A stretch of 49,483 nucleotides of DNA, the filler included, from Jimgerdemannia flammicorona (lineage: Eukaryota), in the NCBI GenBank assembly GCA_003990765.1. It is 2 parts of 2 records of this genome, joined end to end, with 100 filler letters (N's around TTAATTAATTAA, not from the genome) between each part and the next. Parts side by side here need not be neighbours in the genome. Positions count along the whole stretch, not along the records: positions 1 to 24,698 come from RBNJ01000938.1; 1 more part is not named here. One strand, 5' to 3'. Under the pieces are notes generated by a model. The model had not been told where the DNA came from. It ran no database searches and saw nothing but the letters and a program-made list of their open reading frames with translations. The translations under genes and the position numbers were made by a program. Shown here one piece after another: positions 4,288 to 28,264 of this stretch (the first letter of the stretch is position 1; the number at the start of each line of letters is the position of its first letter).

Positions 4288-6110
4288 AAGCACATCAATG
4301 AGTTTAGGGCATCAATGAGTTTTGAGCAGATGTATATATCAATGAGTTCAGGAAAAAAAATAGTGAACTAGATGAGATAATGGATATAAGTATAGTGATG
4401 AGTTCAGAATATTGATGAGTTTAGGACAGATGGGCATATTGATGAGTTCAGATATAGCAATAATAATAATTATGATAACAGAGATACTAGATAAAATATC
4501 TATGGATGAATGGACAAGGCCTCAGAAAAATTTAAAGAAATCAGACATATCATAGAATAAGTCAATTCAATATGAGAGAAATAGGCATGTCAATGAGTTT
4601 GGAGCATCAATGAGTTCAGGAAATAGTTCAGAGAAACAATGAGTTCAGAAAATCAATAAGTTCAGGACATAAGTTTGAAGCATTGATGAGTTTGAGATAT
4701 TGATAAGTTTGGGGTAGATATGTAGATATGTCAATGAGTTCAGACACAGTAATGATAATAATTATGACAATAGAGATATTAGAAAAAATATCTATAGATA
4801 GATGGACAAGACTCCAGACAAATTAAAGAGAACCAGACATATCTTATAGAATCGGCAAATTTTTAAGAGAAAAGGATATATCAATAAGTTCAGAGCATTG
4901 ATGAGTTTGGAGTATTGATGGATTTGGAGTGTCAATGAGTTCAGGGTATCATTGAGTTCAGGGCTTTGATGAGTTCAGAGTATCATTGAGCCCAGAGTGC
5001 CAATGAGCCTAAAGTATTGATGAGTTCAGGGCATCAATGAGTTCAGATCAATAATGAGTTCAGGGTGTTAATGAGTTTGAGGCAGATGGGTATATTGATG
5101 AGTTCAGATATAGCAATGATAATAATTATGACAATAGAGATACTAGAAAAATTATCTATAGATTGATGAATAAGGCTCCAGAATAATTAAAAAGATCTAG
5201 ATATATATTTGATAGAACAGACTAATTTGATATGAGAGAATTGAGTATGTTAATGAGTTCAGAGCATCAATGAGTTCAGGAAAGGCAACAGGGAATCAGA
5301 TGAGATGATAGATATGGGTACATTAATGAGTTCAGAGTATTAATGAGTTCAGGGCATAAATTTGGAGTATTAATGAGTTTGGGGCATTGATGAGTTTGGT
5401 GTAGATAGACATATTGATGAGTTTGGACATAACAATGATAATAATTATGACAACTAAGATATAAGAAAAAGTGGATAGTCAAGACCCCAGAAAAATTAAA
5501 AAGAACTAGACATACCTGATAGAATAGGTCAATTTATAAGAAAAATGAGTACATTGATGAGTTCAGGACATTAATGAGTTTGGGGTATCAATGAGTTTGA
5601 GACTTCATTGAGTTTAGAGCATCAATGAGTTTAGAGAGCTGGCAAGTCCAGAGCACTAATGAGCCCAGGGTATTGATGAGTTCAGAGTATCAATAAGTTT
5701 GGGACATTAATGAGTTTAGAGAGCTTACAAGTCCAGAGCACTGATGAGCCCAAGGTATTGATGAATTCAGGACATCAATGAGTTCTGGGCATCAATGGGT
5801 TTTGGATATTAATGAGTTTGGAATAGATAGATATATCAATGAGTTTGGATATAGTAATGACAATAATTATGACAATAGAAATATAAGAAAAAATGTCTAT
5901 AGATGGATGGAAGATCTCAGATAAATTAAAAGAAACCAGACATATCTAATAGAATAGGCCAATTCATGAGAGAAATGGATACATCAATGAGTTAGAATAT
6001 CAATAAGGTCAGAGTATCAATAAGTTTAGAAAAAGCAACAGGAAACCAGATGAGATGACAGACATGAGTATGTCAATGAGTTTGGATACAGTAATGATAA
6101 TAATGATGAC
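4288..6110. repeat. Degenerate satellite: ~17-bp units (GCATYRATGAGTTYRGG) within a ~300-420 bp higher-order repeat
   Basis: Dozens of atcaatgagttcagg/attgatgagtttggg variants; block gtaatgataataattatgacaatagagata recurs near 4455, 4748, 5113, 5431, 5853, 6090. Confidence 0.9.
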
Positions 6111-6144
6111 AATAGAGACACTAGGCAAAAAGACAACACACATA

Positions 6145-6245
6145 CCAGAAGATAGCAATGAGATGACCTCCCTTGAAGACAGTAATAAGATGATCTCTCC
6201 AGAAGATAGCAATGAGATAATACCTCTAGAAGATAGTAACAAAGA
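6145..6245. repeat. 27-bp tandem repeat, ~3.5 copies
   Basis: gaagatagcaatgagat-like unit recurring every 27 bp (reads EDSN...EDSN in + frame). Confidence 0.7.
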
Positions 6246-6499
6246 TGAAGTAGTAGATACAATAGACAATAGTAATAATGGTAAGGAGGTAGAAAGAGCA
6301 CCAGGTAATAAAGAGGTAATTAAGGAAGAAAACTATATTAAGGTACCAAGGATATAGAACAGTAATGGTATAGGGTAGGGTGGATAGTTATAGTAGTTAG
6401 AAATGGGGTGGGGGTGGAAGAGGTAGGAGTAGAAGAGGTAGAAGTAAAATTTATAGTTTTAAAGTATATGATATAACTTGATGAAGTATCAAATTTCTC

Positions 6500-8470
6500 A
6501 TATATTAATTTTCTCCTCTATCTCTATATGCTATACTATACTATATTTGAGGGTCGTCTAAAAGCAATATAGGGACTAGGGTATAGTCTTCAGGGTATAC
6601 TTCTTCTTGGGTTTTGGGAGTATTGGCTCTTGTTTTTTCTGTTCCATTTTTTCATCCTTAGATAGTAGTTTATTTATTCAGGGACAAAAAGTAAGAGAGA
6701 CCAGGAGAGAATTTCAACCAGCTCTTCTTTATCTTCTCTATATTCTTTCTAAATAGTTCTTCTACTTACATATCTGGATGTTCTTCTTACTGGTCTCTTT
6801 CTTTTCTCAACAGAGTAAACTATTTTTTAAGAGATGATCTTAGTTGGATAAAGATCTAGATTACTGTAATCTTTACTATTGCTTTCCTCCTTGAAGTCTT
6901 TGAAAGAGTGATCTTCAGTCTTTTTTTGCTGGATTACATTTTTTTAATTTAGTGGCTCCAAGTCTCTTCAGTCGTTTTTTATGCTATTAAAATCTATAGT
7001 ATAGTGTTCAAACTATCCACAATAGAAGTACTAGACTTGGACTCTGTCTTACAATAGATATCTTCTTTCTTCTTATAGCTAGTAGCTTCTATTGTCTCTA
7101 GATAAGTCTTGGTTTCTTTGTAGTATATAATCTCTATTGTCTTGTAGATAGCTCTGATTTTTACCTATAGTGAGTTTTTTGATTTACCTAACCTATTAGT
7201 CTAACTTAGAGTTAAGATCCTGGATTTCATTTTTCTCTTTCTTCTACTCCTTGACTGGCTTGCCTTCTTCTGGTTTTCTATATTCTTGAAGGATTCCTTA
7301 TAGAGTTTTAATCAAGAGGTCATTCTTATTATCTTCTTATTGTGATTACTCCAGATGGTCTCTTTTATGATATTAAAAATCTTTGAGCTACATCTACTTC
7401 TTCTTCGGTCCTTCTGATGCCTAGAGTGTAGATATACTGGGTAATGTTTGGAAAATTCCATTCATGAAGATCATTAGACCTATGATATTCTGGTTGGTGG
7501 CATTAAACCTAGCTACATGTATTCTTTTCTGAATCCTGATGAGAAATGCTCTGAGAGATTCTCCAAGATTCATCATCATCCCTATGATGGATTCTTGGAC
7601 CTTATAGTAGATTTCATTTTCTGTATATTTTTCAATAAGCCAGTAGATGATGACTTCATATTCTCTATCTCAAGATATTACTATCTGAATAGCTATTCCA
7701 AGGTCTGAGTGTATATCATTTGTTGCTCAGTTTAAAATTCCTTTGACTGATTCTCTGAGTTGAGCTTTGAAGATATCAATTTTTCTCTAAGCAGTGAGAT
7801 TATTTAAAGCTGCCATTCTTTCAATTATATTAAAGAATTCTCTAAAGTCTTCTTCTGGATATCATGCAAAAGTTGATATTGGAGTGGTCATTTCATCATC
7901 ACTGTCTTCTGGTTCTGATTCTGGTTCTGATTCACTTTCCAAGTTTTTGCTAGAGCTTGAGATACTTGGATATCCTGGAGATGGGGTTTTGGTCCTAAGT
8001 AAAGTATAATAGGTCTGGGTATTCTTGAAGAGACTATTTCTATTCCTTTAGATATCATAGTTGCTGGTTCTGGTAGTGGTTTAATTTATGATACTTCTGT
8101 AGAAAACTGATATTGGAAAATATAATCTTCAAGTTCTTGTACAAGTTTATCAAAATTTTGATTGTGTTCTTCTCTATTCTCTGGCTAAGTCAGATCACTT
8201 AGTGGTAAGTCTGCTGGTACTTCTGGAGTATTTATGAGCTGAACTCTTAGTGATTGAGCTAATATTGGTTAAATATTCTATGATATACTGACCTCTTATT
8301 AGGATCCTTCTAATGCTGGTTAATTGGTAAGTCTTGAGATAATTACTTCTCTTCCTATCCAAATATCTGTAATGACTTATTCTTCTATAGTGGTAAAGAT
8401 TGGTAATGTATCTAATATATGTAGTTTGGCTATTGAGTTCTTATGAGGTAAAAAGTTATATATATTTTTG
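6500..8470 (-). pseudogene. Ty3/gypsy-type gag relic
   Basis: Minus strand reads PISTFA*YPEEDFREFFNNIERMAALNNL (~7890-7800; retrotransposon gag-like) and YFYCG*FEHYTIDF (~7031-6990), which keeps CX2CX4HX4C zinc-knuckle spacing; lies downstream of PBS and LTR. Confidence 0.7.
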
Positions 8471-8476
8471 AGAATC

Positions 8477-8494
8477 TTTCCAATTGAGCCCCCA
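8477..8494 (-). promoter_or_regulatory. Putative primer-binding site (tRNA-Pro-like) of the LTR element
   Basis: TGGGGGCTCAATTGGAAA begins 2 nt after the LTR end; TGGGGGCTC is the start of the known tRNA-Pro PBS. Confidence 0.6.
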
Positions 8495-8496
8495 AA

Positions 8497-9200
8497 TATA
8501 ATATGCTGGCTTAATAGAGATAATGTACAAAGTTGGAGCTACTAAATAGATTTACTAGAGTCTTTAGATACTTTGTCAAAAGTAACAAAATATTTAATAG
8601 TTTCTCTCAGAAATAGATATAAGTTTGGTTTTACTTAATATAGATAATTTTAGCATTTTTCTTATTACAATAAGTTCCAGACAATTATTGTATAATATAG
8701 ATAACTTTGGTTTTCTTCCTTAATATGATAGATTTGTAGATAAGTAGATAATTTACCAAAATGATATAGATTTCTGAATGATACAGATTTGTATAATGTG
8801 GTACATCAGACAGACTTCTTGGTTGTCACGGATTTTGTATAATATAATAAATTTGGCAGATTCTTTCTAAATTGGCCAACTTCTCAAAAATAGCAGTGAA
8901 GTTCTTCACTTGAGCCTGACAGACTTCTTTATATCAGAAAGAGAACTGGAATAGAAAGTAAGCTCATAACTTCTAGTAGTAGCTTATTGGCAGATATATC
9001 TTCTAAGATTGTAATTCTTTCTGAATTAATTGGCTTTTGACAGCTATTTCTCTTAAGTATATCAGATAATTGGCTTTTGCTTTTAAACTTTTTGAACTGA
9101 GATTTATGCACTCTTTTCTCTGGAATATTTTATATAGTTGTGATTGCTATCTGATTGCTATATAGCTAATTGTAGATTATTATTTCTGATAAAGTTTAGC
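8497..9200 (-). mobile_element. 5' LTR of the gypsy-like relic (far boundary approximate)
   Basis: tataatatgctggcttaatagagataatgtacaaag aligns with tgtaacgtgccagctcaatagaggcaaattacaagg at 16126; further similarity 8915-9170 vs 16410-16670. Confidence 0.65.
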
Positions 9201-9419
9201 TATTTATATTAGGAATATTAATCTCCAATTCTGATATAGTGTCCTAGCTAGAAATACTTTGTGCTCTTATTTGTTTATTTGGATTATTTATATAGATTAG
9301 TACAGTATAGTAGTCCTAGTTATCTAGCATATCTGATATAGTATATATATGGCTAAATTAACTAACTAATTTAGATAATAACTTAGTATAGTTCTCTGCT
9401 AACTATTATAATATATCTG

Positions 9420-10600
9420 ATACTAATTAGTACTATATATCTGCACACTATACTTCCACCCATCATTATCTTCTTTTTATAGTTGAGATTGGCAAAATCT
9501 ATTTAATTCTTATATTCTTCAGAACAATAAAGTTTTCTCTGGTTTTATACCCTTTATAGTAGAAATTAAGATACCAGTAGTACCTTACTTATATCTATGT
9601 TAGTTTTGATATATTGGGTCTATTATCTTGCCCTATATATCTATGATCTACTACTATGAAGTAATATATAGCTTTCATTCATTCAGTTGTTCCAAATTAT
9701 TTCTAACCTTACTAACTCTTTCACAGCTTTTTTGCATTATATATAGTATAAAATGCTAGCTAAGTATATATTTAACTTGATCTCAGCTTCTGATTATAAT
9801 TGGTATCCTATGTCAGCTCCTTTCTCTTTCTCATCTAAATAACAATAATAACCTCAATTTTATTACAACTATATTATTAGCATATGTCAGATTCCTATAG
9901 TCTGGTAAATTTATCTGAGAGAGTCTATTTGATATATCCTTTTAAGTATCTTAGGACAGTATCATATTCTACTCTCATATAATTGATCCAATATATATTA
10001 TATTTATCTTATCTTTTTGAAAATAGATCTCTTTTAATAGAACTATTCTCTGTTTATCACTAAAACCATTTTGAATATACTGTATATAGTGTCTTTACTC
10101 TGACTATTATTCCTCATATTCTCTGGCCCATCTAGTACTCCTTTATTCATATTCTCTACAAGCTATTCTTTCTCCTATAACTCTCCGATCCTTTGTCTCA
10201 GATCTCTGCTTCCTTGGATTAGATTCAATATAGCTCTTTTTGCTAATTATAACTTTCAGATCAGAGTAATATCTGATGTCACAATGGTGGGACTTTCAGA
10301 TTACAAGATTTAAATACTTGATTGATAGTCTACTGATATCTTCAAAGGATATATTTATATATTTATTTCTCATATCTGTAATCTTTAGATATCTCTCACC
10401 CATCTGACTCTACAGTCTTAGCCCTATATATATCTGTAACTTCAGCTAGTTTGTAAGCTTTTTCTTATTTCACATTGACTTATAACACTAGTCTCTCTGA
10501 AGACATACTATATATATCTGCTATTTTCATTACTTTGTACTGCCTGCATCTCTCTCCTTCTGTTTAAATCTATATTCTTTCTTATTCTTCATTTTTCTTT
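9420..10600 (-). pseudogene. Heavily mutated non-LTR reverse transcriptase fossil (different family from the L1-like copies)
   Basis: Motifs in correct order on minus strand: KTVESDG (~KAPGPDG), IQNGF (QxGF), RIYQIDSL (GVxQGDxL), NLTYANNIVVI (YADD, 9873-9884), YIGQ (YLG). Confidence 0.55.
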
Positions 10601-11354
10601 AGGATATTTGTCTTTCTCTTTCTATTTCCTACTTCTTTACTTTATATTATAGTATATAACATTTATTTGGATTAGTTTTCCTATTGTCTGTTTTACTCAA
10701 ATATATATAATTTAATTTAGGGAGAATGATTGCATTCTAGCAGAATGGGGGAGAGAGAGCAGAACCCCATGTGGGATTGGGTGAGAGTGGGTTATTGTGT
10801 AATGTTAGAGTATAGAATAGTTTGGTAATAAATGCAGTAGTCTGAGTAACCATAAATATATAATTTGATTTAAGATTATCTTATTTCCCTCTATCAATTC
10901 TATCATAGTTTTTCTTTCTTATAGATATATTACTAGTTATTAAATGAGTGAGCTCATTTGAGACCACAGGTCAATATATGTAGAAATGTCTTAGAGGCAA
11001 AGATTTCAAGCACTGAATGTCTCTCTCTGTTTGGATTTAACTCATATTTTATCTGAAAATACATAGTAGGCATATATTTTCCTTTTTGGATTGCCTTCTT
11101 TGCTTAATATTATAATTTAGCACTTCATATATTATATACTACTTGTTGTTCTATTATATACATTTGCCTCATATACATTTACTATTATTTTCACTACCAC
11201 CACCCCTCTCTACTCATATATATGATAGAGTTGGTTTTTCTACCATCTGTTTCACATAAATATATATAATTTGATTTAAGATTGTCTTGTTTACCTTTAA
11301 CAATTCTGCTATAGTTTTTCTTTCTTACAGATATTATCACTAGACATTGAGTAT

Positions 11355-12193
11355 ATAGGGCTCTTCTTTTGTTAAATTTGATATTGGGGATGGGGTTGAG
11401 TGTCAGAGGGAGATGGGGTTGGATATGTTGCCAGTCAGTTGGCAGAGTGTTGATATAGGTGAGAAGTGAGACTGAGATAGTATTTGGTCCTAGTGTGTGG
11501 AGGTTAAGCAGTGGCTTCCCCCCAAGTTCTGGGTGGTATAGTAGTATATGCTAAGGAGGAATGTCATGCTGAACTTCTGCTCTGGACATTTGATTGAGGG
11601 TGGAGAGTTTGATTGTGAGGAGTGCCTTAATGTGGGGCAGAAGGGAGGGTTTTGTACAGTTGTCTGAACATTGATTGGGAGAGTGTGAGGTGCTTGGTGA
11701 TTTCTGGATTGCAGTAGGGGAGTACCTGGGAGTCCATAGGAGGAGAGATGAGGTGAGAGGCTGTTTGGAGGATTTGAAGGAGCATCTTGTAGGGGAAGTG
11801 GGGAATGAGTGAATTATGTGTGACTGGGTCTTGGTAATTTGGGTGGGGCTGGCTGGACATTGGCTCTTTGTATTTGAGAAAGGATGGCAGTTAAGCATTG
11901 TGGAGAGGTTGTCAAGATAGGATGGACTGATGGTGGATCTCTTGACTGGCTGGTGGATGGGCTGGGGGCCTTTGGGTGGCCATCACCACTGGCTTGTTGA
12001 GGGGATCTGTGCACAGAGCAGGGGTCAAATGGAGGTGATTGAGGGCAGAGTGGTCTTCAAACAAGTAGGAGTTGGTGGGGTACCTCCTAGGGGGACTGGG
12101 TAGTGGGTTGGGTTGGATATTGTATTTAATATAACATAGAATGTGGTAATAAAGCAAGGAGTCCAAGTGACTATATAAAAAAAAAAAAAAAAA
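11355..12193 (+). mobile_element. 3' fragment of L1/Tx1-like LINE with poly(A) tail (more divergent subfamily)
   Basis: Aligns with ~23880-24698; ends AATAAA...GTCCAAGTGACTATAT then A-run to 12193. Confidence 0.88.
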
Positions 12194-12583
12194 GACATTG
12201 AGTGCGTGTTTAATGATCGTTGGCAGGTCGGCCGATTATCTGAGTATCTGAACATGTGGGTTGAAATCAATTTCAATGTTGTCATCATTCCGTGTCGCCC
12301 ACCGATCGATCCGTTTGACGATGCCAATTCGTGCTGCTCGTGAAATTGCCGATACATTGTGTAATTCTGTCCAACTTGGCGTCGGCGATGGCGGGTGTCG
12401 TCGTTTGGGGCATAGGAAAATTCCGCGTTTGAGTGTCCATATTCCCTTTCGAAATAGATGGCGAAGCTGATCATCAATCCTGTTTATGACATAGCATGCT
12501 ATCTCTACTAACCATTTAAGTGTAAAGCTGCCGACGGTCGCTTCCGTTTCTCTACGTTAATCACAACACCTGAGAAGTATGGG

Positions 12584-13016
12584 ATGATGACGCAGCAAAA
12601 TATGGACGCTTATAGGTGCTATGCGCCAAATCGAGAAGGAATCTATGCACTCCCCAAAGCGAACGACTTCCTCGAAAATCAAAAGAATGAGAGCACCATA
12701 CGGGACGGCAGGTCGATCGAACGTGGGGCCACCGCCGTGCACATAGTGGCCTTCTTTAAACATGAATCCTCCACCGGCATTACGTTAACGCCAGAATTTC
12801 ATGCGGCCGGAGGCCTTGCGTACACCGCCTCCTCACCGGAGACAATAAAGTGAGTAGAGGAAATAGCCATGGCAGCGTGTCATGAGGCTGTACCGAATAT
12901 TGGATTGTGTCTGGAGGCCGGGCTGCTGTCGGTCGGCGAGCAGAGGGTGAGGGTGGCTGATGTTAAGGTTCCCTCCAGGTTAGACTGGATAGAGGCGAGA
13001 GAAAGGGTGCGATGAT
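12584..13016 (+). other. Possible coding relic or exon of unknown family
   Basis: 89-aa ORF continues in frame past a single TGA (VEEIAMAACHEAVPNIGLCLEAGLLSVG...); no recognisable motif. Confidence 0.2.
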
Positions 13017-14597
13017 TAATTGTTTTCCTTTGAAGATTCGGGATAAGAGTCGAGGTGCCAGGGGTAACATCTGCGTCTGCTCGGATGATGTTACGAGGGT
13101 GTTTGGTTCAGTACGAGAGCTAGAGAGCATTCTGTATCTGTAAATCCGACGTCAATTTACCCGCTTGCAACGCCCTATGTTACATGACGACGCAAATGCC
13201 GTATCTATTTCCCATCTGCCCCGAATATCCCTGCTCCGTCCGGCAAAATTACCTTCCCGAGACACATAGCTCCGCTCTTCGATCGTTCGTCCATAGCGTT
13301 GCGGAAACAAGGACACAGACCGTAATCCTCGCGCGCGTCGGAAAATCACTTCGAAAGACCGTATCCAGTCATGACCACGGTCGCTGAATCACAGAAAACG
13401 AAACGCGCTGGGAATAACTAATCCAGCTCCGGATTCAGGAAATTCGGGAAAGCGCCCTGGTCAGGTGAAGGTTAATATGGAAAGGTGTTATTAGCTTGGC
13501 ATAAGGAGGGATGGCAAATGGGTTTGAAGTAGAATTTTGCAATTGTTACTCACCTTAGGGCTGTCGCTTCAAGGAGTCAAACAACCTCCGAGATTCTTCG
13601 ACAGAAGGAATGCTAGTCTACCTTCACCAACGGAACGCCTTCTCCCTGATCCCAGTGCGTATATACGGTGGCAGTATGAAGATGGCCTGACTTGTGGAAC
13701 AGCGCTACCATTTAAATTTTTTGTGTATCTTTTTTTTGGATTGTTTTTTGGAGAAATAACTGGGCCATAGGTTGGATATCTGTGACTTAATCCAGCTACG
13801 TCATCCAAAATCAATTTAAAAAAAGAACTGGAGGCGGTTAAGTTCCAATAATCAATCTAAATTTGAAATTTGTATTGAAACCCGGTCATTTCTCGGCGAC
13901 ACGTCGTCGTCAGATATTGCATGTTAGAACGGCAGTTCAAGCTCACAGAAATCCGACGTGCAGCAGCAATATTTCTTCGGAGGCACCTGCAAGGTAATTC
14001 GAAAGCGATATCATATTTCAGCGTCACTTGCGATAAAAATATAAAAGAAGTTTTCCGTATCAACCTCCTTTGGATGGAGTGTGTTGGGGTCGGGTCGAGT
14101 TTCAAGATTTCAAATCGTTTAAGCATCGAGAAACGTAATTGATCAAGTCCTCTTATGTGCATTATAATTGCGTTCGTGAATGCAAAAAATAAATAAAATG
14201 AAATAAAAAACCCCGGTGTATTCGTTAGCTCGAATTGTGTATATGGAAGAGAATTATAAACCTCTTTAATTACCGGCGGATTTGTTTTATGTTTTAATTC
14301 TTAATGGTAATTTTACGGACGATAATACTGTCAACCGATTCCGTCTTCAATGGTGGCGGAGCTCAACTCCGCTGATTTCACATGTTTGTTTTCATTTCAT
14401 TTATTACCGAAATTTACAAACACGAGAGGTTTTTGCCTCCCGAAAATAAAATAGAAAACCTCGTAGGCGCGATGTCGTTAACGATATAATATATATACAT
14501 GACGCAATGAAAAATCGCGCTAACTAAGCCCTTCAAAACCTCGCCAACACGCCAAAACATCGACCATTGCACCCTTGACGACTGTTTGCTGGGTAGA

Positions 14598-14936
14598 TCA
14601 ATGGTCGTCGTCGTCGCAAGGGTCGTCGCAAGGGTCGTCGCAAGGGTCGTCGCAAGGGTCGTCGCAAGGGTCATCGCAAGGGTCGTCGCAAGGGTCGTCG
14701 CAAGGGTCGTGGTGATGGCAGTCGCAATCGTCGTCATGGTCGCAATCTTTTGTGGACTTCTTTCCCCCCTTCTTCTTCTTCTTCTTCACATCGCTTTTAT
14801 GAACGTGAGGCGCAGGATCTCCTCTGCGTGCGAGGGCGGCACCAGCCTTGTGGCGGATGGGGATTGGGGTGGACACGACAACAGTGGCGAGCATCGCCAG
14901 AAGGACGAAGAGGACGAGGGCGTTGGAAGGTTTCAT
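14598..14936 (-). CDS. Small secreted protein, 112 aa: signal peptide, dibasic (RR) site, Lys-rich tract, Asp/Cys/His-rich (DPCD)8 tail
   Basis: ATG at 14936: MKPSNALVLFVLLAMLATVVVS|TPIP...ARR...KKKKKKGGKK...DCDHDDDCDCHHH(DPCD)8DDDH*; intronless; TATA box upstream; CpG-rich context. Confidence 0.85.
   Translation of the reverse strand: MKPSNALVLFVLLAMLATVVVSTPIPIRHKAGAALARRGDPAPHVHKSDVKKKKKKGGKKSTKDCDHDDDCDCHHHDPCDDPCDDPCDDPCDDPCDDPCDDPCDDPCDDDDH
14613..14708 (-). repeat. 12-bp coding tandem repeat x8 (GACCCTTGCGAC)
   Basis: Eight gtcgcaagggtc units on + strand, with one synonymous variant. Confidence 0.95.
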
Positions 14937-15021
14937 GTCGATGGAGATGAGAGAGTAGGAGGGTATGAGATTATGTGTTGGGCTGATGAGGCTGTTGGTC
15001 AATGAGTGCTGACGATGTGTG

Positions 15022-15029
15022 CTTTTATA
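15022..15029 (-). promoter_or_regulatory. TATA box of the secreted-protein gene
   Basis: TATAAAAG ~86-93 bp upstream of ATG, followed by a C/A-rich leader. Confidence 0.6.
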
Positions 15030-16125
15030 CACGAAATTTGGGCGGATGGCATGTCTGGCGGTAGCTCGACTTGTTTTTGGTATTGTCCACAAGAGCCCAT
15101 TACGGTCTGAATTTTTTTAAAGAGCATTGTTATTTTTGGGTGCATTGATCAAGCGCTTAGGCAGCAAGATTTAATTTTAATTTTATCGTAAATAATACCC
15201 ATTCATAATTATATCGCAAAAAATACACACGTCCCACCTCACCTTCACTTGTTAGTAGTCCGATCTTATTTTAGATCATACAGGTCGACGGTCCAGGTTG
15301 ACAAGCAACCCATGTACTATGGGACACAATTCAAATAGATGTAAACAAACTTATAAAAAGATCACAACATACAGATGTAAAATATTAAAAAAAGAATAAA
15401 ATATTCACTAGATACTAAGCATGCAACAATGCACGTGACAATACATGCGGCAATGGACAATAAAGCAAGCAAAAAAAGTACATAACAAAGTCAATTAAAC
15501 AAACGGATCTTCTCACTATGTCTATGCACATATTCATTGTCGGCGGCCCTTCTTCAACACATAGTATGCCACGCCGACTTCAATATTTAGTAGATGTAGG
15601 TGGTTACCTTACAAAATACGTGTATATATATATACCAAATTAGGATCAAATAAAACGTCACATATTTCAACCTATTTGATTGGGTCCCATAGTTAAACGC
15701 CCAGTTCGAATGCCTGGGTACCTCTATTTATAGATGCAAAGCGCCCACCACCAGTCCAGTTGGCATGTGGTGCGTACTGATATTTCGACTGGCAAAAAAA
15801 AAAAAAAAGAGTTCGCAGGCGACACCTGAAACGGAACGGAACCGTTAAAAAATGTTCCGCTGACCACTTGAGAGTTAAATAAAAATGCGAAAACCGTCAC
15901 TTAAAAATTCTTTCGAGCTGCGCCCTTGGGTGGCTGACGGGAATGGCGTCGATCTCTCAAGTGGATATAATGAATCATTCGGATATTCCGTACCAACTTG
16001 AAAGTTGATTACATGCATGCCCTTTCACAGGATGTATTGAATCGTGTACCGTGATAGTTGGCGATCAATTTTATATACTGGCACATATCCTCATTTTACC
16101 TCAAACGATGGAAATTTCTCACTAC

Positions 16126-16690
16126 TGTAACGTGCCAGCTCAATAGAGGCAAATTACAAGGTGGGGCAGCTATGCGAATTGGCTTGGGCCCCCAGTTACT
16201 TTGTTGAAAAGTAACAAAATGTTCAATGATTTATCTCAGACAGAATATCTCTAAGTTGGCAAAGTTCTCTCCTTAGAACTTTGATAGTAAATCTTCAGGC
16301 TCAGTCTGATAAGTATATCCAAAAGGGAAATATCTTAGACAGATAGAGTTCTTCCTTAAAGCTCTGGCAGCAAGTCTTCTGGCTTAATCTGGAAAGCAGA
16401 CCAAAAATGGCAGACTTCTTTGTATCAGAAAGTGGACTGGAGTGGAATCAGACATTAATGCTCACAATCTCCTTAATAGTAGCTTTAGAGTAGATATTTC
16501 TCTTAAGTATTGTAATCCTTTCTTAATTAAGTGGTTTTTGGCAGACATATCTCTTGAAGTATATAAGGCAGATTTGTCTTTTGCTTTTAACTTGGATTTC
16601 AGACTGAGGTTTATTCACTTGAATCTCTGGAATATTTTATATAAGTATAGTTGCTATCTGATTATTATCTGGATAATTATAAAATATATA
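16126..16690 (-). mobile_element. LTR (probably solo) related to that at 8497; far boundary approximate
   Basis: Starts TGTAACG exactly where CpG-rich DNA ends; aligns with 8497-9170. Confidence 0.65.
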
Positions 16691-16994: not shown

Positions 16995-17554
16995 TAGTGC
17001 TTCTAATGAGTCAATTTAATCCAGATTGGATTCAGATTAATTCAGATTGAATCTCATCCAGATCAACTTAGATGAGATTTAAATCCCATCCAGATGGATT
17101 CAAATCAACCATTGTTTTGATTTCCAAATTAGACAATTAAATGTTTACATCAATAACTTAATAAATAATTATCCAAATTTGATAATCTTGGTGTCATTTG
17201 AAAGCCCTTAATAAGGCCTATCTAATAATATTAAGAAAATTGAAATTGGATCATACGTTGCTGAGTTATTAAGGAAAACATCTGTCAATTTGCCCATTTT
17301 GGAAATTTTATCAAATAGAACATTTTTCTTAATATCTCAGTAATTTGTGATCCAATTTTAATATTCTTGGTATCATTAGAAAGGCCTTATTAAGGACATT
17401 CAAATGACACCAAGATTATCAAATTTGGATGATTATTCATTGAGTTATTGATGTAAACATTTAATTATCTAATTTGGAAATCAAAACAATGGTTGATTTG
17501 AATCCATCTGGATGGGATTCAAATCCCATCTAGATTGACTCATTTGGAGCACTA
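16995..17554. mobile_element. Complete hAT-type MITE, 560 bp, long inverted arms, 8-bp TSD
   Basis: Termini TAGTGCTTCTAATGAGTCAAT...ATTGACTCATTTGGAGCACTA; TSD GTTTTGGC at 16987-16994 and 17555-17562. Confidence 0.92.
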
Positions 17555-18270
17555 GTTTTGGCAGTCATTTTCTTACTTGGCTGTGGCAGCATTTTAACTG
17601 ACTGAAGTTTTGTGATGATTTTCCAAAGCAATATTAACTGGCAATTAATTCATATCTTGAATAAAATGGTCTTGACTTATATCTTGAGTTTCCTGACAGC
17701 ATTCTGATATTTTCCATAGTCCTGTATCTTGAATTCTGTAATAATTTTTGAGATATATAGCAGCAAAATGGCAAGAGTGATTTATCTTCTCAATTTCTAA
17801 GCTTCATGCTCCAGATAGATATATTGATCTCTAGAACTATTCATTCTCTCAGAGGCAGTGTGTTTTTCTGTAAACTTTCTTTTTACTTCAAACTAAAACT
17901 GACTGTCTTATATCTTGAACATATAGTCTTGTTTTTCCAATTTCTGTGGCAGTCTATAATAAGAGAAATTCTTTAAACTCAAACCTCAAGTGATCATTGC
18001 TCTAGTTATCTTATTTGTTTCTTAGAATTATTTTCATCTCTTAAAGATAGTGGGTTTCTTTATAATCCTTTTTACTTCAAACTCAAGCTAACTGAGATTT
18101 ATTCACTCAAGTTGAGGAGGTATTTATACAAATTTCAGACTAGATATAAGATTATATAATTGGTTGTAACTCACAGTTACTAGAAAATACTATTTAGTAC
18201 ACTTTTGGAAATCAAGTGACTAACTAGCTAGATAAGACTAATTTTATATTTGTGATGAATTTAACTAGTT

Positions 18271-18420
18271 AATAGATAGTTACTGTTTGTATAACTAACT
18301 AACTTACTCAAATTTGACTAGTTAGGTAGTTACTGTTTATACAACTAACTAACTTACTCAAATTTGGCTAGTTAGATAGTCACTGTTTGTGCAACTAACT
18401 AACTTACTCAAATTTGGCTA
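18271..18420. repeat. 50-bp tandem repeat x3
   Basis: gttagatagtyactgtttgtrcaactaactaacttactcaaatttggcta at 18271, 18321, 18371. Confidence 0.9.
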
Positions 18421-18995
18421 ATAGAGCTATCTTTATGCAACTTGAAGTTCAATATGACTGAGATTATATCATCCTTATCTTCCTCCTCATTTTCTTCAAA
18501 GAGTCTGGCCAAATTATTTTCTGCATTCTCTACAATTATGCTGAGATTAGTAATGAGTTCTGTAGATAATAAAAGAGGACTTATATACTCCTCCAGAAGG
18601 TTGTCAAGGTCTTCTTCCTATGAAATAAGTAGTTTACTCTGCTCTGGTTCTTGAGATATCTAATCAATAGTATTATCATCTACAAAGTAGGATATACATA
18701 TCTGTGGAATTCTGAGAGTAGCAGACTCTCAGAGGAGGATCTTGGAACGATATAATCAGACCTTAAAGGAACTGATCTGGGGTATTTTCTAAGATAGGGT
18801 TCCAAAGATCTTGAACCTTATCACTCTTGACTATAATAGTAGACTGGGCTTCTTCTGCAATCATTTCTTCAAGATGGTCTGTAGAGTGGCTTGTCTGTTC
18901 TTAAATATCTGAAATCTTGATATATTCTAAGTTAAGAATGGCCCAGAGTGCATGTCTGAAGATCTGGAAGATTCTCTTGGCTACCTTCTGTTCAT

Positions 18996-21900
18996 ATGCA
19001 TGTAGAGAGAGGTTATAGATTGGAGATGGGGGCTTTTGGAGAGTTGAAGAGTGGCAAAGGCTCTGGAGGAGAACCAGTATCAGGTGGATCTGGGGGAAGG
19101 CCTAGTCCCTCTAGCTTTGCCAATAAGATGAGGGTGAGTGGATGGCCTGCTGGAACCAGGGCTGGTGCTGCTGAGGAGAAGGGCAAGACTAGTGTCGAGA
19201 GGGGGGGTGGTCCTCAGGTGGGAGATGTGAGCATAGGGGCTGGAGGGGCTGTGGCTGGGAGTGTGACTGTTGATGAGAGTGTGATGGAGAATCAGGAAAA
19301 AAAAAGAGATATGATGGCTGATGGCCAGGTGGGGCGGGGTCCCCAATGTAGAAGGGGGACCTGGCAGATAGTGTAATAGGGCTGGCAGTAGCCCTGTTGC
19401 TCAAGAAGTCGATCTCAGAGTTTGCAGCTACCTTGTACTTCTGGGGCTTGGCAGTGACAGCGAGGATGGTCCTGGGGCTTATTTCAAAGCAGGTGGCTGA
19501 GGTAGCCTCAGTGAAGTTCCAGAGGGGCCTGGAGGGGGTTGAGGTGGGCTTTGAGGAGGTGGGCCCATTGGACGAGGCCCTGAAGACTAAAGTAGTGGTT
19601 GAAGAAGTGGTGGTCCCCATGGTGCAGTGCTTGAGGTGGAACCCCAGGGTGGTATAGCTTCTGATGAAGGGGGTGCTTATGGTGACAAAGGAGGAGACTA
19701 GGAGGAGAGTGGAGGAGGTGATGGTAGAGTATGGTGATGTTATGAATATTGGCTTCTAGATGTGGAAGGGGACAACATTTAGGACAGGCGACATTGATAT
19801 CAGAATTCAGCTGGCAGAGAAGGAGGCCACAGGGAAGATGAGTGACTGGCCCTCAGTACTGAAGTGGGGGGCTTGTATCTATAAGGTGTTGAGGGTGAAA
19901 GAGAGTGAAGAGGAGGAGGAGGACTTGTTAGAGGCTCTAGAGGAGTTGAGTGGTGCTGTGGAGAGGAGGGCAAAAGCCTGGAAGCTATTTGAAGAGTTGA
20001 TACATCTGGAGGTCATGGATGGGAAGTGTATCTGTACTGACAGGAGGCAGTGGGAGTGGGCCCAGAGGCGCAAGAGGCAGAGGGAACTTTTGGTAAGTAT
20101 GAAAGGAGGGATGAAGAAGAAGTTGGTTGGGACTGAGGAGTCTGGAGGTATTGAAGCCAGTGTCTGGACTAGTAAAGGAGGAGAGGAGGTGGAGGCAAAC
20201 AAGAAAGAGGCTGGGAAGGCACTGGGTAAGGATCTCTATGCTGACAGTACCTTCAAAGTTTGGGAGCAGGAGGTGGATAGCACTTCTCCCTTACCTATCA
20301 GGAGGGGCCCAGTTGGGAAGAGAGGAGCAGTAGAGGATATGCTGATGCAGGAGGCCCACAAGTTCACTTTGGAGTCCCAGATATGGCAAAAAGATGGTGG
20401 TGGTTAGTGAGGATGAGCTGGTGGATGTCTCAGAGGAGGAGTGGGATGAGGATGCCAGTATGGGAGCAGATACCATGATACTGGATGCAGGGCAGCCAGG
20501 GACTCCTGGAGGGAGAGAGGTGGGGAACTTACTGTAGATGAGCAAGGTGATGGATAACCTCATGGCAGAGGAGTTGGGAGAAGTTGACTTGCATGTGATG
20601 CTGGAGGAGCATTGGGCATAGATTCTGCATGGGGATGGGGTGGTGGAGGCATTGAAGGCAGAGATACTTGTGATTTTCAAGGAGGAGGAGAGATATGTGG
20701 TGGATGAGGTGAGGGAGACTGAGTTAGTGATCATTGCTGATGAGCAGGCTGCCTATTGTTGGGCAGAGCATCATGGGTTGCAACTCTGGCAGGAGGCATG
20801 CCTGAAATACCAGGAGGATTTTGAGGAAAAGGAGGATGGGGTGATAGTGGAACTTCTGGCTAGGTTGGAGGCAAAGGTGACTAAAGAGAAGGTACTGGCT
20901 ACCAAACATAACTTGGACTTGGCACAGGAGGAGCTGAATGCAGATTTATAGAGGGCATGATTGATAACCAACATTATTCCTTATAAATAGTATAACTAGC
21001 ATTTTTTCTCTAAATGTAAATGGGCTACAGGGATCAGGGCAGCATAGGATTATTTTTACTTAACTTAAGAGATTGGAGGCTGATCTCTTTTTACTGCAGG
21101 ATGTGTGGTGTGAGGATGAGAAAGATCAAGTAGAGTGGACTAGAGAATGGGAAGGGGCTACTGCTTAAAATAGCGAAGTGGCGATTCTGGTGAGGAAGGG
21201 TAGAGAAGACTTGGGCAGAATTCAGAACTGGGGAGACTATTTGGTCTGGAGAGTTTGGCACTGATCTGGGTGGGAATTGGTGAGGGTTGGCTCCTGCTAT
21301 TGTAGTTAGGGGTGAGCAGATTGAGTAGATTAGGGATCTATTGGAAGAGGGTGTTTTCTTGGAGGAAGGTGTTGATGTCCTAGGAGGTGACTTTAATATG
21401 GTGCAGGATCCATGGCTGGATAGAACTGATGAAAGAAGGAGTGCAGGTGAGAGGAGTGGTGGACTGCATAAGTGGGAGAAGGTGGAGAACCTTAACTCCT
21501 TAGGAGATGTGGGCAGAACACAGTGGGGTAACAGGAGAATCTATACATACTGAGTAAATGTACTGGGTACAAGAATTGACTGAATTCTGACAGCTGAATG
21601 TTGGAGTGCTGATGTTTGGAGGACTCTGGAGGTAGAGTAGTGCCCTTGGTCTGATCACTGGAGGCTAGTGGGGCAGGGACAGTTTGGGGGGAGTGGAGAT
21701 GGACCCAGACATTTGTGCCTTAACTTCTCCCTGCTGGCTGAGAAGGGGTTGTGGGACCCATGGGTGGAGGATGTCCAAGTGAAGATCACCACCTGGATAC
21801 ATGAGGGATCATCTGTGGGTGTCTGATGGATGAAGTTGAAGGAGGCTGTGAGAGTTTATTAGAGAGGAGCTGGTAGGGAGGCTGGGAGGCAGAGAAGAAA

Positions 21901-24698
21901 GTGAGTACAGTGTACTTCTAATAGACTGATTAGATTGCAGATAGAGTGGGCTGAGTTGCTTCATTCTGAAGGGGAGGAGGATTGGAGGTTGGAATGGGTG
22001 AAATTGGAGACAATTGAGTTGCAACAAATATTATGAGAAGAGGAAGAGATTTGTATGAAAGGAATGGCTGCCAGACTATAGTGGCAGGGGCTTGAGGAGT
22101 GGGAGCAGCCCACTAGGTATCTATCAAGGCTTCTCTAAGCTAAGAGGATACACCACCAATGGGAGGGGGTCTTGGATACTGAGGGTGATATGGTGCATGG
22201 CACACAGCAGATCTTGGGAGTACTGAAGGAAAAATGGAGGAGTCTGTGGAGTGAGGAGGAAGGGGGGACTGATGGAGAGGCAATTGAAGATACACTGGAG
22301 GAGTGGATGCCACCGCAAGTAGAAGGACTGGGGAATTTGATCTTACTAGTCCAAGAGGAGAAGATCCAGAGAGTCCTTGTAGCAACTAAGCTGGGGACAG
22401 TGCCAGGAGAGGATGGGTTATCTTGGGACTTCTGAAAGAAGATAGTGAAGGTTCCTGGTATATTAGGAGAGATGGCTGCCCTCTATGACCATGTTCTTCT
22501 GAATGACGAGTGGTTGGCAAGCAGGACTTGGGGCTGGTGACCTTATTATTCAAAGATAAGGAGAGGAGGGAGGACTTGAAGAACTGGAGACTGATCATGC
22601 TTCTGGATATGGACAGAAAGATGGTGACTAAGGTGATTGTTGTGAGGCTACAGAAGGTTGCCCAACAGGTTCTGAGTGAGGAGCAGCAAGACTTTGTGGG
22701 AGGCAGGCTTATTAGAGATGGGACTGCCTGGGTGCACAGCATCATTGAGAGGGCCCGGGCTTGCAGACTGGATGATAGACTGGTCTTTTTGGACCAGGAG
22801 AAGGCCTATGACTGTGTTCAGCAGGTATGGCTAGGCAAGGTGCTGGATAGAATTGGTGTTCCCCCAAGGATTCAGGCTGCTATGCTGAATTTGTTGGAGG
22901 GCAGTAGGGCAGTGCTGTTGTGTAATAGTCACCAGAGTTTGGCATTTCCTTTGGGAAGAGAAGTTCCTCAGGGAGACCCACTGTCTCCTATCCTTTATGC
23001 CCTTTCTTTGGAATCTTTGATGAATAGGATATGTCAGAGAGTGGCAGGGCTCTCTATGTATGGTGTGGTGTGGAAGGTGGGGGCCTTTGTGGATGATATG
23101 GTAGTTGGACTTAGATTGGTAGCAGACATTGAGGTACTCAAGAAGACAGTGGAATGGTATGAGGCACACTCTGGGGTAAAACTCAACTGGTATAAGTGTG
23201 AGACTATAGTCTTAGGGAATGAGGAGATGTCATTGGAACAATTGTCCCCACAGGAGAGGTAGTGTGGTATTTGGGCATCTTCCTTTCAGTATATAGATCT
23301 GTCTTGCCACAAGTGTGGTGGGAGAGGAGAGTGGCCATCTGGAGAGAGGCTCTTAGAGATTGGGGGGGTCACCACAACTCTCTGGCTAGACAGATATCGA
23401 TTCTGAATGTCTACTGGTTCTCCAAGCTATAGTATATGGCCTATCACTTAGATTTCCCAGCTTAGGTAGTGAAGCAACTGACAAAACTGGCTAGAGATTG
23501 GATTTGGGCAGAGAGGAGGTCCCAGATCAGTTGGGATACACTTGTAACATTGGTGGTTAGGGGAGGACTAGGCCTTGTGGATTTCTCTAAGTGGCTGCAC
23601 TGCCTACGAGCTTAGTGGTTGAAAAGGGCTATTGAACTGCAGGGAGGAGATTAGTTACCACTGCTGCAGAAGGTGTGGGAGGTGAGATTCTCCCCTCGGG
23701 AGTTCTCAGGAGATTTGCTCTCTCTGGTGGGCCTGACTGGAAGCTGATAGTTTCAGTATAAGGACTTCTGGTAGGGGGTGGTAGATGGAGCTCACCGGAT
23801 AGGACTGTGCTAGTGAGGCAATGAGGGGGAGGTGCTATGGGGTCCAGCTATGTGGCGATGGGACAGACTCCTTCTGGGGGGTGTTCTGCTTGCTGAGTTT
23901 GATATTAGTAATGGAGTGGAGTATCAGTGGGGTCTTGGTCAGGATATTTGGCCAAGTAGTTGGCAGGCTGTAGAGGTTGGTGAGGAGTGGGACTGAGCAG
24001 GTGTCTGGTTGTAGAGTGCTGAGGTATGGTAGTGGCTTCCTCCTAAGTTCTGGGTGGTATAGTGGCAGTTGTTGAGGAGGAATGTCATATTGAATTTCCG
24101 GGCTGGACATCTGGTGGAGGGTGGCCATTTTGATTGTAAGGAGTGTTATAATGTAGGGCAAGTTGGGGGATTTGTGCAAACACCTGAATATTGGCTGGGA
24201 GAGTGTGAGGTTCTGGGGGACTTTTGGATAGCAGTAGGGAATCAACTGAGTGGTGAAAGGAGACCAGATAGAGAGAGAGGTCACTGGGAGGATCTGAAAT
24301 CTCAGCTAGTGAGTGGTGTAGGCAATAGTTGGTTCACTGTGGGTGGGTATTAGTAGTGTGGATAGGGCTGGCTGGACATTGGCTCTTTGTTTTTGAGGAG
24401 GAGTGATAGATGGGTTTATAGGAGAAGTTGCTAAGATGGGAGAGGTTGATGGGGGATCTGCTGACTGAGTGGTGGGTGGGTTGGGGTCCCCAGAGTGGTA
24501 AATGTCATTGCCTGGTAGAAGGAATCTTTAAACAGAGTGGTGGGCAGGTAGAGATGGTATTAGACAAAGTGGTCTTTCATCAAGTGGGGTGGATAGGAGA
24601 GACCCCTCTAGGGGGATTGGATAGGGTTGGGCATTGTGTATTATTTAGATGATAGATGGTATTTTAATAAAGAGAGAAGTCCAAGTAACTATAAAAAA
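18996..24698 (+). mobile_element. Near full-length degenerate L1/Tx1-like LINE (ORF1 ~19000-20960, ORF2 ~20983-24652, poly(A))
   Basis: ORF1 has Tx1-like segment (EYGDVMNI..WKGTTFRTGDIDIRIQL..WPSVLKW); ORF2 has GGDFN, SDH, PGEDG, FLDQEKAYD, PQGDPLSP, FVDD; ORF2 ATG mutated to ATA at 20983; AATAAA and A-tail at 3' end; 5' boundary approximate. Confidence 0.92.
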
Positions 24699-24798
24699 NN
24701 NNNNNNNNNNNNNNNNNNNNNNNNNNNNNNNNNNNNNNNNNNTTAATTAATTAANNNNNNNNNNNNNNNNNNNNNNNNNNNNNNNNNNNNNNNNNNNN
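24699..24798. other. Assembly gap/linker: 44 N + TTAATTAATTAA + 44 N
   Basis: Six-frame-stop 12-mer centred in an exact 100-bp N block. Confidence 0.95.
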
Positions 24799-25189
24799 AA
24801 AAAAACTAGACGACGGGTAGCGCTGCCAAAAAAATAAAAAAAATAAAATAAAATAAACAGAAATTCTCTTAGATTACACCGCTTCCCACAAAACTAAACG
24901 GCGCACCACCTGGGATATTTATCGTGGTGTTAAATCTATTAGCTTGCGCACAAGGCGTGTTGTTAACCACGTTTAAATCCCCCGCCTCACTACTCTGATG
25001 ATATAGATCAAGAAGGAGGGTGGATGGGAGCAGAAAAACTGTGCGGGACAGACTGAGTGAAAAGAGATGAAAAATTGCACATATGCTATAATGATTGCTT
25101 AATCGAGTAATGGCGTGTCTCTAACGTACCATCCCTACCAGGATCGCCTCCATATCGTGGGTTCTTGACCACGTGGGTTTATTGAAGGG

Positions 25190-25840
25190 ATCCTGAGGAT
25201 ATACGTATATAATTCAATTATCAAATTCATTGTACGACCAACATCATGTCTTCTTCTCTTTACACTCAATCGTCTTCATAAGGGTTTTCACTCCCACCCA
25301 CCTCCCTGTTTCGTACACCTTATGTAAGTCGGGTTCTTCGAACTGACCGATGCAACGCTTCGAGATTGAAATATTCCTCATGAACGTATACACATACAAA
25401 CATATACTCATCCAATCGATTATCATTTACGCTTTATACATATACGGGTGGCAGTTAATAGAGGGTACGGGTAAGGAAGACGGGAATTTAACCATCACGT
25501 CACGTACGATCGGGCAAGAATTCAGGGATAGCGCGTTAAAGAAACGTTTTAGTCGATTAGGCAATCCATATACGTATATCATTCAATTGTCAAATTCATT
25601 GTACGACCAACATCTGTTTTCTTCCCCTTACGCTCAATCGTCTTCATACGGTTTTTCCCTCCTACCCACCTCCGTGTTTCGTACACCTTATGTATGTCGG
25701 GTTCTTCGAACTGACCGATGCAACGCATTCGAGATAGAAATATACAAACATATACCCATCCAACCGGGTATCACTTACGGTTTATGCATATACGGGTGGC
25801 AGTTAATTGAGGGTATGGGTTATCGGAGAAGGAAGACGGT
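25190..25840 (+). repeat. Two tandem copies of conserved ~310-bp non-coding module A
   Basis: Core GTCGGGTTCTTCGAACTGACCGATGCAACGC at ~25328 and ~25697; also ~28405, ~48480, ~48917. Confidence 0.85.
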
Positions 25841-25919
25841 GCCGCGGTCTGCGGTCTGGGCCAAAATTTCGATCGTATGTCACATGCCACTTAAGGTGAC
25901 GTGCTGTGGGTGACGCTAC

Positions 25920-26910: not shown

Positions 26911-26948
<38 letters not shown>

Positions 26949-27029
26949 CAGCATATTGTAAACGACCCGACAGCATATCTTGATTATCAAGCATCTCATT
27001 GTGAACGTTCAAAGAAACAGTGGGTTCGA

Positions 27030-28062: not shown

Positions 28063-28075
28063 TTTGAGGTGAGGC

Positions 28076-28223: not shown

Positions 28224-28264
28224 GTCTCGAACGCACTCTAAGTGTTATCTGGACCCACACATAA

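Follow-up and report, generated by a model that had tools for sequence, protein, structure and literature searches.

A probable gene for a small, putatively secreted orphan protein with a periodic Asp/Cys tail in Jimgerdemannia flammicorona, tentatively read as an extracellular cation binder

Mycorrhizal and soil fungi commonly have small secreted repeat proteins that are orphans; to our knowledge, few of these are known from the Endogone-like Mucoromycotina, which form an old, plant-associated and little-studied lineage. Environmental Cys-rich proteins have reportedly been obtained from metatranscriptomes of soil eukaryotes (Ziller et al. 2017). Among the systems described in more detail, Kex2-processed repeat proteins are reported to consist of identical or near-identical motifs with a dibasic KEX2 site between one and the next (PMC6339444), and KEX2 is reported to cut after the RR of MiSSP8 in vitro (10.1101/218131). 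"Small secreted metallothioneins" are mentioned as strongly expressed in rust haustoria (PMC2441471), and the Candida albicans zincophore Pra1 is described as having flexible C-terminal His-rich regions together with a Cys/His motif, with a proposed role in zinc foraging (PMC12663325). Here we describe an open reading frame (ORF) at 14598-14936, on the minus strand of a 49,483-nucleotide (nt) stretch of DNA from Jimgerdemannia flammicorona. The whole of this stretch is referred to below as the window; it consists of parts of two records joined with filler after position 24,698, and the two parts need not be genomic neighbours. The ORF is very probably a real protein-coding gene. Its product appears to be a small secreted protein with an acidic tail in which Asp and Cys recur periodically, and extracellular cation binding is the role that we tentatively assign to it.

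Translated with the standard code, the ORF runs from ATG to TGA and specifies 112 residues plus the stop. The parts that an initial annotation of this DNA had read from the sequence alone, namely a signal-like start, an ARR, a Lys tract, an Asp/Cys/His block and (DPCD)8, were all recovered by translation at the positions collected in Table 1. The upstream TATA box, TATAAAAG, is likewise present and lies 86 nt before the ATG on the minus strand; no other ATG intervenes, and the one that opens the ORF is the first downstream of this box. The tail is strongly acidic and the protein has 11 Cys, as had been noted, all of them within residues 65-107. Residues 64-112 comprise 25 Asp, 11 Cys, 5 His and 8 Pro and zero Lys or Arg, such that Asp, Cys and His make up 41 of the 49 tail residues and Cys alone 22%. 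The Asp/Cys/His block occupies residues 64-76, ahead of the DPCD units, and the tail carries two His clusters. Cys spacing is regular, with C-x3-C in eight of the ten Cys-Cys intervals, a single CxC (C71-D-C73), zero CxxC and zero CC.

Evidence that the ORF is transcribed was drawn from public sequencing runs. A k-mer index returned 18 runs containing part of 14200-15400 (15 of them on record as RNA, from 15 studies; shares up to 0.25), and contigs from four of the 18 (four studies) were placed on 13600-15900. These four were X1 (from organism A, with RNA status guessed) and the soil metatranscriptomes X2, X3 and X9. The remaining 14 runs include three labelled root metagenome (shares 0.06) and two DNA-type soil runs, and nothing was inferred from them, habitat included. 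All four runs yielded contigs at least 99% identical to the window, with joint cover of 14398-14953. The contigs of X2 (14399-14618), X3 (14398-14618) and X1 (14683-14895, 213 nt) had 0 differing letters, and those of X9 had 0 at 14661-14756 and 2 at 14803-14953. Since the cover shows no joint, the covered part holds no intron. The X2 and X3 contigs stop at 14399 and 14398 without a loose end, a weak hint of a transcript 3' end near the AATAAA. No contig of X2, X3 or X9 was placed on 13600-14397 or 14954-15900, a lack of cover that proves neither silent flanks nor the absence of DNA from these libraries. Word depth in X1 was 1019 for the 213-nt contig compared with 2.96 for the flank contig that lies, nearly identical, at 15260-15557. 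Contig depths measure abundance poorly, and we take this as a hint of high abundance in X1.

The initial annotation had named the lack of a minus-strand transcript among the findings that would refute it. Contigs from RNA libraries do contain the gene, which speaks in its favour, although the strand is not given by the contigs. Their span fits between the minus-strand TATA box (15022-15029) and the AATAAA (14400-14405), and by these sequence signals the RNA would be of the minus strand. The G+C content at third codon positions (GC3) of the ORF is 0.67, as against 0.52-0.57 in the kinase ORFs of the window.

The protein is likely to be secreted, judging from its N-terminus. A home-made signal-peptide test, which required a positive n-region, an uncharged 12-residue window with mean hydropathy of at least 2.4 and a small-residue -3/-1 site, was passed by one of the 89 window ATG ORFs of at least 60 amino acids (aa). 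That one was 14598-14936, and the random expectation was 0.085 per 49.5 kb. The best 12-residue Kyte-Doolittle mean of the N-terminus was 3.12. At 112 aa the product is within the size range of the operational class of fungal small secreted proteins (below ~300 aa), and it has no hydrophobic segment past the N-terminus; together with the crude signal test, this makes it a candidate for that class. AlphaFold2, run without an alignment, returned a mean predicted local distance difference test (pLDDT) score of 53.4; only residues 5-22 were modelled with confidence, as a helix (block pLDDT 77-87), and nearly all of residues 32-100 scored below 50. Apart from the signal helix, the protein is predicted by this model to be intrinsically disordered. 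Kexins prefer cutting at K/R-R, and cleavage may occur at R37-R38. Two further processing or anchoring schemes were considered and rejected: STE13-type trimming after the RR, where the next residues are G-D and the rule, as described, wants X-A or X-P (PMC6339444), and a glycosylphosphatidylinositol (GPI)-anchored wall protein, the C-terminus being acidic and not hydrophobic.

At the DNA level, the eight DPCD units differ by one synonymous change only (GAC to GAT at codon 88), which points to an array of recent origin or one kept homogenised. The minisatellite exceeds chance and ORF length alone does not, as a first-order Markov control with island composition gave 6.2 ATG ORFs of at least 112 aa per 49.5 kb. 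In addition, the repeat leaves several frames open on both strands, so that the open frame here is weak evidence by itself. Each 12-bp unit contributes exactly one Cys, and a change in copy number flips the parity of the Cys count, which is 11 in the present allele. A fixed intramolecular disulfide map is for this reason unlikely, and the argument from parity favours thiolate chemistry, with thiols free or metal-bound, or intermolecular links. Tandem Repeats Finder also reported CTT x 6.3 at 14769-14787, which is the (AAG)6 microsatellite of the Lys tract. On the plus strand a frame of 164 codons is open at 14511-15005, in which the ATG at 14601 would give 134 aa with a (VVAR)n repeat; this plus-strand ORF (14601-15005) was considered as a second gene and set aside as a mirror image of the minisatellite, as far as visible.

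Table 1. Positions of the features of the gene and of its surroundings, counted along the window.
Feature	Position	Strand	Basis or remark
Coding sequence (CDS), single exon, 112 codons + TGA (14598-14600)	14598..14936	-	Translation; first ATG past TATA box; RNA contigs without joints
Signal-peptide-like N-terminus, residues 1-22	14871..14936	-	Lys2, 16-residue uncharged hydrophobic core, V-V-S, then likely cleavage site
Basic pro-like segment, residues 23-38, isoelectric point (pI) 12.0, ending L-A-R-R	14823..14870	-	Sequence
Putative kexin site R37-R38	14823-14828	-	Sequence; cutting inferred from kexin preference
Basic segment, residues 39-63, 10 Lys, pI 10.4	14748..14822	-	Sequence composition
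Lys tract, residues 51-60, largely (AAG)6	14757-14786	-	Within basic segment 39-63
Acidic Cys/His/Asp tail, residues 64-112, pI 4.05	14601..14747	-	Composition; modelled as disordered, pLDDT <50
12-bp minisatellite, 8.4 copies, 97% matches	14610..14710	-	Tandem Repeats Finder (score 195, period 12); encodes eight DPCD units
Eight DPCD units, residues 77-108	14613-14708	-	Translation; followed by DDDH
TATA box TATAAAAG	15022..15029	-	86-93 nt upstream of ATG
AATAAA, likely polyadenylation signal	14400..14405	-	193 nt past stop; contigs X2 and X3 end nearby (weak hint)
Minimum RNA-contig extent: 3' untranslated region (UTR), CDS, at least 17 nt of 5' UTR	14398..14953	-	Strand from sequence signals, not from contigs
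Unique island with normal CpG, holding the gene	12181..16407	.	Between CpG-depleted degraded transposon copies
Kinase-like copies	27036-28053, 29694-31046, 37572-38911, 42042-42636, 44039-45154, 45925-47662		Pfam domain and repeat comparison

Variant forms of the sequence were present in the RNA libraries. A diverged second form of the 3' UTR showed 8-10 differences over 14493-14615. In the variant contigs, 1-nt indels (deletions) occurred only downstream of the stop, at 14572 and 14574, and the insertion inside the ORF, at 14604, was of 3 nt. Diverging contigs with loose ends at 14808/14810 continue in frame and free of stops into another Lys-rich stretch, and the variant 3' end encodes Asp/Cys units without Pro followed by the same Asp-His-stop ending (both by hand translation). 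The diverged contigs imply several alleles or paralogues, in the organism or in co-occurring strains. To judge from these translations, the forms would have the N-terminus in common, and each would be rich in Lys and end in an Asp/Cys tail, whether they are alleles, paralogues or strains. Further contig forms depart from the window sequence at 14842. At the listed variant places, the X1 cover of the 3' UTR is of the variant form entirely, and X2 and X3 contain both forms.

The initial annotation did not recognise the family, and our searches likewise gave no match to a characterised one: the non-repeat part had no homologue among 1,835,955,588 representatives or in Pfam, NCBIfam or PDB sequences. 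A phmmer search of the representatives produced 20 matches at E <=0.001 and none at 1e-10. Among the matches with an aligned stretch, 15 of 16 lay inside query residues 57-110, and the remaining one, P0016, aligned to residues 23-109 through a Ser/Gly/Asp/Pro region of low complexity. The seven phmmer matches that were retrieved, the one to 23-109 included, were unrelated proteins whose repeats are of the x-D-P-x or P-C-D/E-E-P-C type. One low-complexity match only was returned by a 5.8-billion word-indexed protein library (E 1.2e-3, 783 candidates). In the metagenome contigs of JGI, 239 pattern matches yielded 0 confirmed relatives, and an exact 27-mer of the signal-peptide region had 0 matches. 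The protein atlas gave no usable match, nothing matched among PDB sequences at E up to 10, and Rfam gave only a chance match to CRISPR-DR6 (E 0.63) outside the gene. Within the window, tblastn with either the whole protein or residues 1-64 as the query found the gene itself only, plus poly-Lys from poly(A) tracts (E >=0.037). A full-text search of the literature with four rotations of the repeat motif found no paper. The protein appears, as far as sequence comparison goes, to be a lineage-restricted orphan with no relative detectable in the searched libraries; the lineage is thinly represented there and small ORFs often go uncalled, which limits the meaning of "orphan".

Several known families were considered individually and rejected. 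Pfam, searched at E up to 10, listed only PF05887 and PF04886, both as sub-threshold composition matches. The first, a procyclic acidic repetitive protein, reached 14.2 bits (E 0.043) through the composition of its Asp-Pro repeats, where the cut-off is 100, and the second 11.9 bits against 26.2. NCBIfam gave three matches, all sub-threshold. The bacterial Cys-Xaa-Xaa-Xaa radical-SAM targets TIGR04114 and TIGR04117 scored 9.8 against 20 bits and 7 against 50 bits (E 1.1 and 6.1). MopE-like or acidic double-disulfide repeats (PF11617, NF033662) were listed by neither Pfam nor NCBIfam at E up to 10, and thrombospondin type-3-like calcium repeats were absent from the Pfam listing. No metallothionein family model appeared in Pfam at E up to 10, and the Cys do not follow the CxC/CxxC/CC pattern. 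A Kex2-processed repeat protein was discounted on the position of the sole R/K-R site, R37-R38, which precedes the repeats, residues 64-112 being without Lys or Arg. As for SP7-like effectors, compared by their published description, the eight identical 4-residue units here include no conserved island and there was no sequence match.

What stands of the interpretation given in the initial annotation is a gene for a small, probably secreted orphan protein; the metal-binding, biomineralisation, wall and host-nucleus roles that it offered are ones that we can still only infer. Asp, Cys and His are classical metal ligands, and metal or cation binding is the main role that we favour, tentatively and with rather less than even confidence. 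In this interpretation, an intronless Mucoromycotina gene (the kinases of the window being nearest to Endogone) would give a 112-residue pre-protein, which its signal peptide (~residues 1-22) would direct into the secretory pathway and from which a kexin might cut off a short basic pro-segment at R37-R38. Once mature, the chain, of ~74-90 residues, would be disordered and would combine a cationic Lys segment with a polyanionic tail that has a Cys at every fourth residue amid Asp and Pro. Outside the cell, the tail would serve as a high-capacity, low-specificity cation binder, in which thiolate, imidazole and carboxylate ligands could capture ions of the Zn, Cu or Cd type and the Asp possibly also Ca or Fe. 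Through its Lys segment the protein would be retained on anionic polymers of the wall or the soil, and metals would be buffered or scavenged at the hyphal surface. The length of the tail, set by a slippage-prone 12-bp minisatellite, could change quickly. A bolder form of the proposal, which we consider doubtful, would make the protein a secreted, gene-encoded analogue of phytochelatin: a disordered (Asp-Pro-Cys-Asp)n exported by Endogone-like hyphae that chelates soil metals, for Zn/Cu/Fe scavenging or Cd/Cu detoxification, with its capacity rapidly tuned by copy number. If true, plant-associated fungi of early-diverging lineages would have a new class of metallophore, extracellular and made of protein, and abundant enough for assembly from bulk soil metatranscriptomes.

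A number of points weigh against cation binding by a secreted protein. Metal binding, secretion and cleavage are all read from the sequence, and the signal-peptide call comes from a home-made test and not from SignalP. The contigs distinguish neither the strand nor RNA from contaminating DNA, the RNA status of X1 being itself a guess. No orthologue was found, so conservation is unusable as functional evidence, and the lineage is poorly represented in the libraries, where the window kinase used as a query found nothing above 45% identity. The oxidising extracellular space may lead the Cys to form disulfide bonds, blocking metal binding, and the C-x3-C spacing with Pro differs from the CxC/CxxC/CC of metallothioneins. 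Lastly, the near-perfect DNA repeat may be a recent product of slippage on which selection has yet to act.

Other explanations draw on much of the same evidence. The odd number of Cys (11), set by the repeat copy number, and the two-part charge layout with its predicted disorder would also suit a structural or adhesive protein of the hyphal surface, fixed in the wall or between hyphae by intermolecular disulfides and electrostatics and with no specific metal role. Mucoromycota walls are chitosan-rich, and the Lys segment would sit on anionic polymers and the Asp tail on cationic chitosan-type polymers. Precedents are available in MiSSP8, reported as a 70-aa unstructured protein with a signal peptide and a C-terminal 4-residue repeat that is needed for mantle formation (10.1101/218131), and in Ustilago Rep1, described as a small secreted repeat protein in wall or hyphal aggregation (PMC4617103). 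However, the sequence has neither a GPI-type hydrophobic C-terminus nor a Ser/Thr-rich glycosylation region, and we regard this explanation as unlikely, with the qualification that a structural role and metal binding are not mutually exclusive and are not told apart by the present evidence. The classical nuclear localisation signal (NLS) has the pattern K-K/R-x-K/R, which the Lys tract fits by eye, as would be expected of a host-translocated effector that is secreted in roots and enters plant cells. The layout is also that described for SP7-like effectors (PMC11333574; PMC4617103), and Endogonales relatives are reported to include root symbionts (PMC12574304; PMC5729711). Yet the three environmental libraries in which contig placement confirmed the gene (X2, X3 and X9) are labelled soil, not root, phmmer found no similarity to any SP7-type protein, and SP7-like proteins are reported as Glomeromycotina-specific (PMC11333574). 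Furthermore, a simple (AAG)6 microsatellite underlies the Lys tract, and SP7 has no counterpart to 11 Cys in a polyanionic tail. The likeness to SP7 drawn in the initial annotation holds for the modular layout and breaks down on the repeat type, the Endogone-like context and the sequence match, and an effector role seems to us decidedly improbable.

A more sceptical explanation is that the ORF is young or non-functional, transcribed without a selected peptide function (de novo or decaying, and extended by slippage), or that the RNA is non-coding or from the other strand. The failure to find a homologue in any library searched, a repeat that is 97% perfect at the DNA level and open on both strands, the ~6 chance ORFs of this length per window, and contigs that carry no strand information are all consistent with it. 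This account is nevertheless improbable given a well-formed signal peptide exactly at the first ATG past the TATA box, diverged transcript forms that retain the frame, the Lys-richness, the Asp/Cys tail and the same ending, and the high contig depth in X1; for its part, the plus-strand ORF is without secretion or start signals and reaches 15005, past the RNA contigs. Finally, in a defensin-type precursor the anionic pro-piece serves to mask the cationic peptide, and here a cationic segment (pI 10.4) adjoins an anionic one (pI 4.05) with a dibasic site ahead, which could be the arrangement of a cationic antimicrobial or signalling peptide precursor whose active Lys segment is neutralised by the tail until processed. 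But no K/R pair occurs after residue 63 and the tail is without a basic residue, which leaves no processing site between the segments, and the Lys segment has no hydrophobic face, making such a precursor very improbable indeed.

Returning to extracellular cation binding, a tail that binds metals outside the cell would let soil hyphae scavenge or detoxify metals by means of a protein, and the minisatellite would then provide a countable measure of how binding capacity evolves between strains. The presence of near-identical sequence in the soil RNA libraries of three studies makes the gene a possible field marker for the fungus. Should the protein be only wall filler, or the ORF young, the finding would be an ordinary one.

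The gene was initially placed in a CpG-rich island among dead transposable elements, and this agrees with our data. The observed/expected ratio of CpG is ~0.9-1.9 across 12001-16000 (1.26 over the gene), compared to 0.0-0.26 in 1-12000 and 17001-24000, where degraded RVT_1-bearing copies resembling long interspersed nuclear elements (LINE) occur. The island (12181-16407, 4.2 kb) is the sole stretch of its window part without repeats elsewhere in the window. Two LINE-like copies of ~4 kb, inverted, degraded and 77% identical, lie at 236-4282 and 24521-20482, with an RVT_1 remnant on the plus strand at 22507-23262 (E 2.7e-24). These copies have an absolute GC skew of ~0.3-0.5 with a G-rich, C-poor sense strand and ~50% GC. 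Across the window, CpG falls into two states, at 0.0-0.26 in transposon-derived parts and mostly 0.8-1.5 in the genic 12001-16000, 25001-33000 and 36001-49000, and (CpA+TpG)/(ApC+GpT) is mostly raised to 1.4-2.1 in the CpG-poor transposon parts. Judged by composition, this looks like methylated-CpG decay confined to repeats, and not like Neurospora-type repeat-induced point mutation. The same island holds two minus-strand ORFs of ~150 codons, at 12025-12483 and 13857-14300, without a Pfam match, and a low-depth X1 contig fits 13856-13934 only partly. Runs of N, 44 each (88 in total), at 24699-24742 and 24755-24798 on the edge of a LINE-like copy are probably assembly gaps.

From 25 kb on, the window contains kinase-like genes or gene fragments (Pkinase / PK_Tyr_Ser-Thr; Table 1), at least six in number and paralogous to one another (64-87% DNA identity), several of which look truncated. 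Long poly(A)/poly(T) tracts lie by the kinase copies (~26900-26970, 36177-36290 and 39574-39654) and are read as Lys or Phe runs in ORFs; they could be retroposition tails or microsatellites. For one window kinase, 22 proteins were found at E <=0.001 among 6492 candidates, and four of the six best matches were kinase-like proteins of Endogone sp. FLAS-F59071 (E 3.8e-54 to 1.1e-39, 32-45% identity). The look-alikes in the atlas were clusters with Mucoromycota as the commonest phylum. By these similarities, the window stems from a Mucoromycotina fungus that is related to Endogonales and has no annotated proteome close to it in the libraries.

When set beside known systems, the locus shares some part of its design with each of them. 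Metallothioneins offer the likeness of a small protein with a Cys-rich, low-complexity tail and plausible thiolate ligands, together with presence in soil RNA libraries. Classical metallothioneins, as described in the source consulted, are without a signal peptide and use CxC/CxxC/CC (PMC13578184), whereas the present protein has C-x3-C, a Lys tract and a putative signal peptide. Pra1, as far as its description goes, is likewise a secreted fungal protein with a flexible His/Cys C-terminal region proposed to capture extracellular zinc; it differs in its length of 299 aa, its glycosylation, its folded core and its conserved His motifs, whereas our protein is modelled without such a core. In its set of ligands, the protein resembles metal binders that are secreted or lie on the wall side, among them Pra1 and the "small secreted metallothioneins" of rust haustoria. 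The PF11617/NF033662 families resemble it as secreted Asp/Cys-rich tandem repeats read as cation-binding, but their repeats are of ~30 residues with paired disulfides and belong to bacterial surface proteins. SP7-like effectors have in common with it a signal peptide, a basic NLS-like stretch and hydrophilic tandem repeats. Theirs are described as 6-11 imperfect repeats each ending in a conserved island, in a Glomeromycotina-specific group (PMC11333574), in contrast to the eight identical Cys-bearing units found here.

In working terms, its closest counterparts are the small secreted repeat proteins of plant-associated fungi that are confined to single lineages, of which MiSSP8 of Laccaria bicolor is an example. 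According to the part of its description consulted, MiSSP8 is likewise short (70 aa compared with 112 aa), with a signal peptide, no predicted structure and an acidic mature protein, and it too has a C-terminal 4-residue repeat, an RR site and almost no sequence relatives (10.1101/218131). The two differ in that the RR of MiSSP8 is described as lying inside each DWRR repeat, which is cut into peptides, whereas here a single RR lies upstream of repeats without a basic residue. As described, MiSSP8 also has no Cys periodicity and is of basidiomycete origin, and the phmmer search showed no sequence homology between it and the Mucoromycotina protein. What sets the latter apart is a tail of unusual chemistry, the periodic Asp/Cys tail behind a putative signal peptide, which occurs in none of the small secreted repeat proteins considered here.

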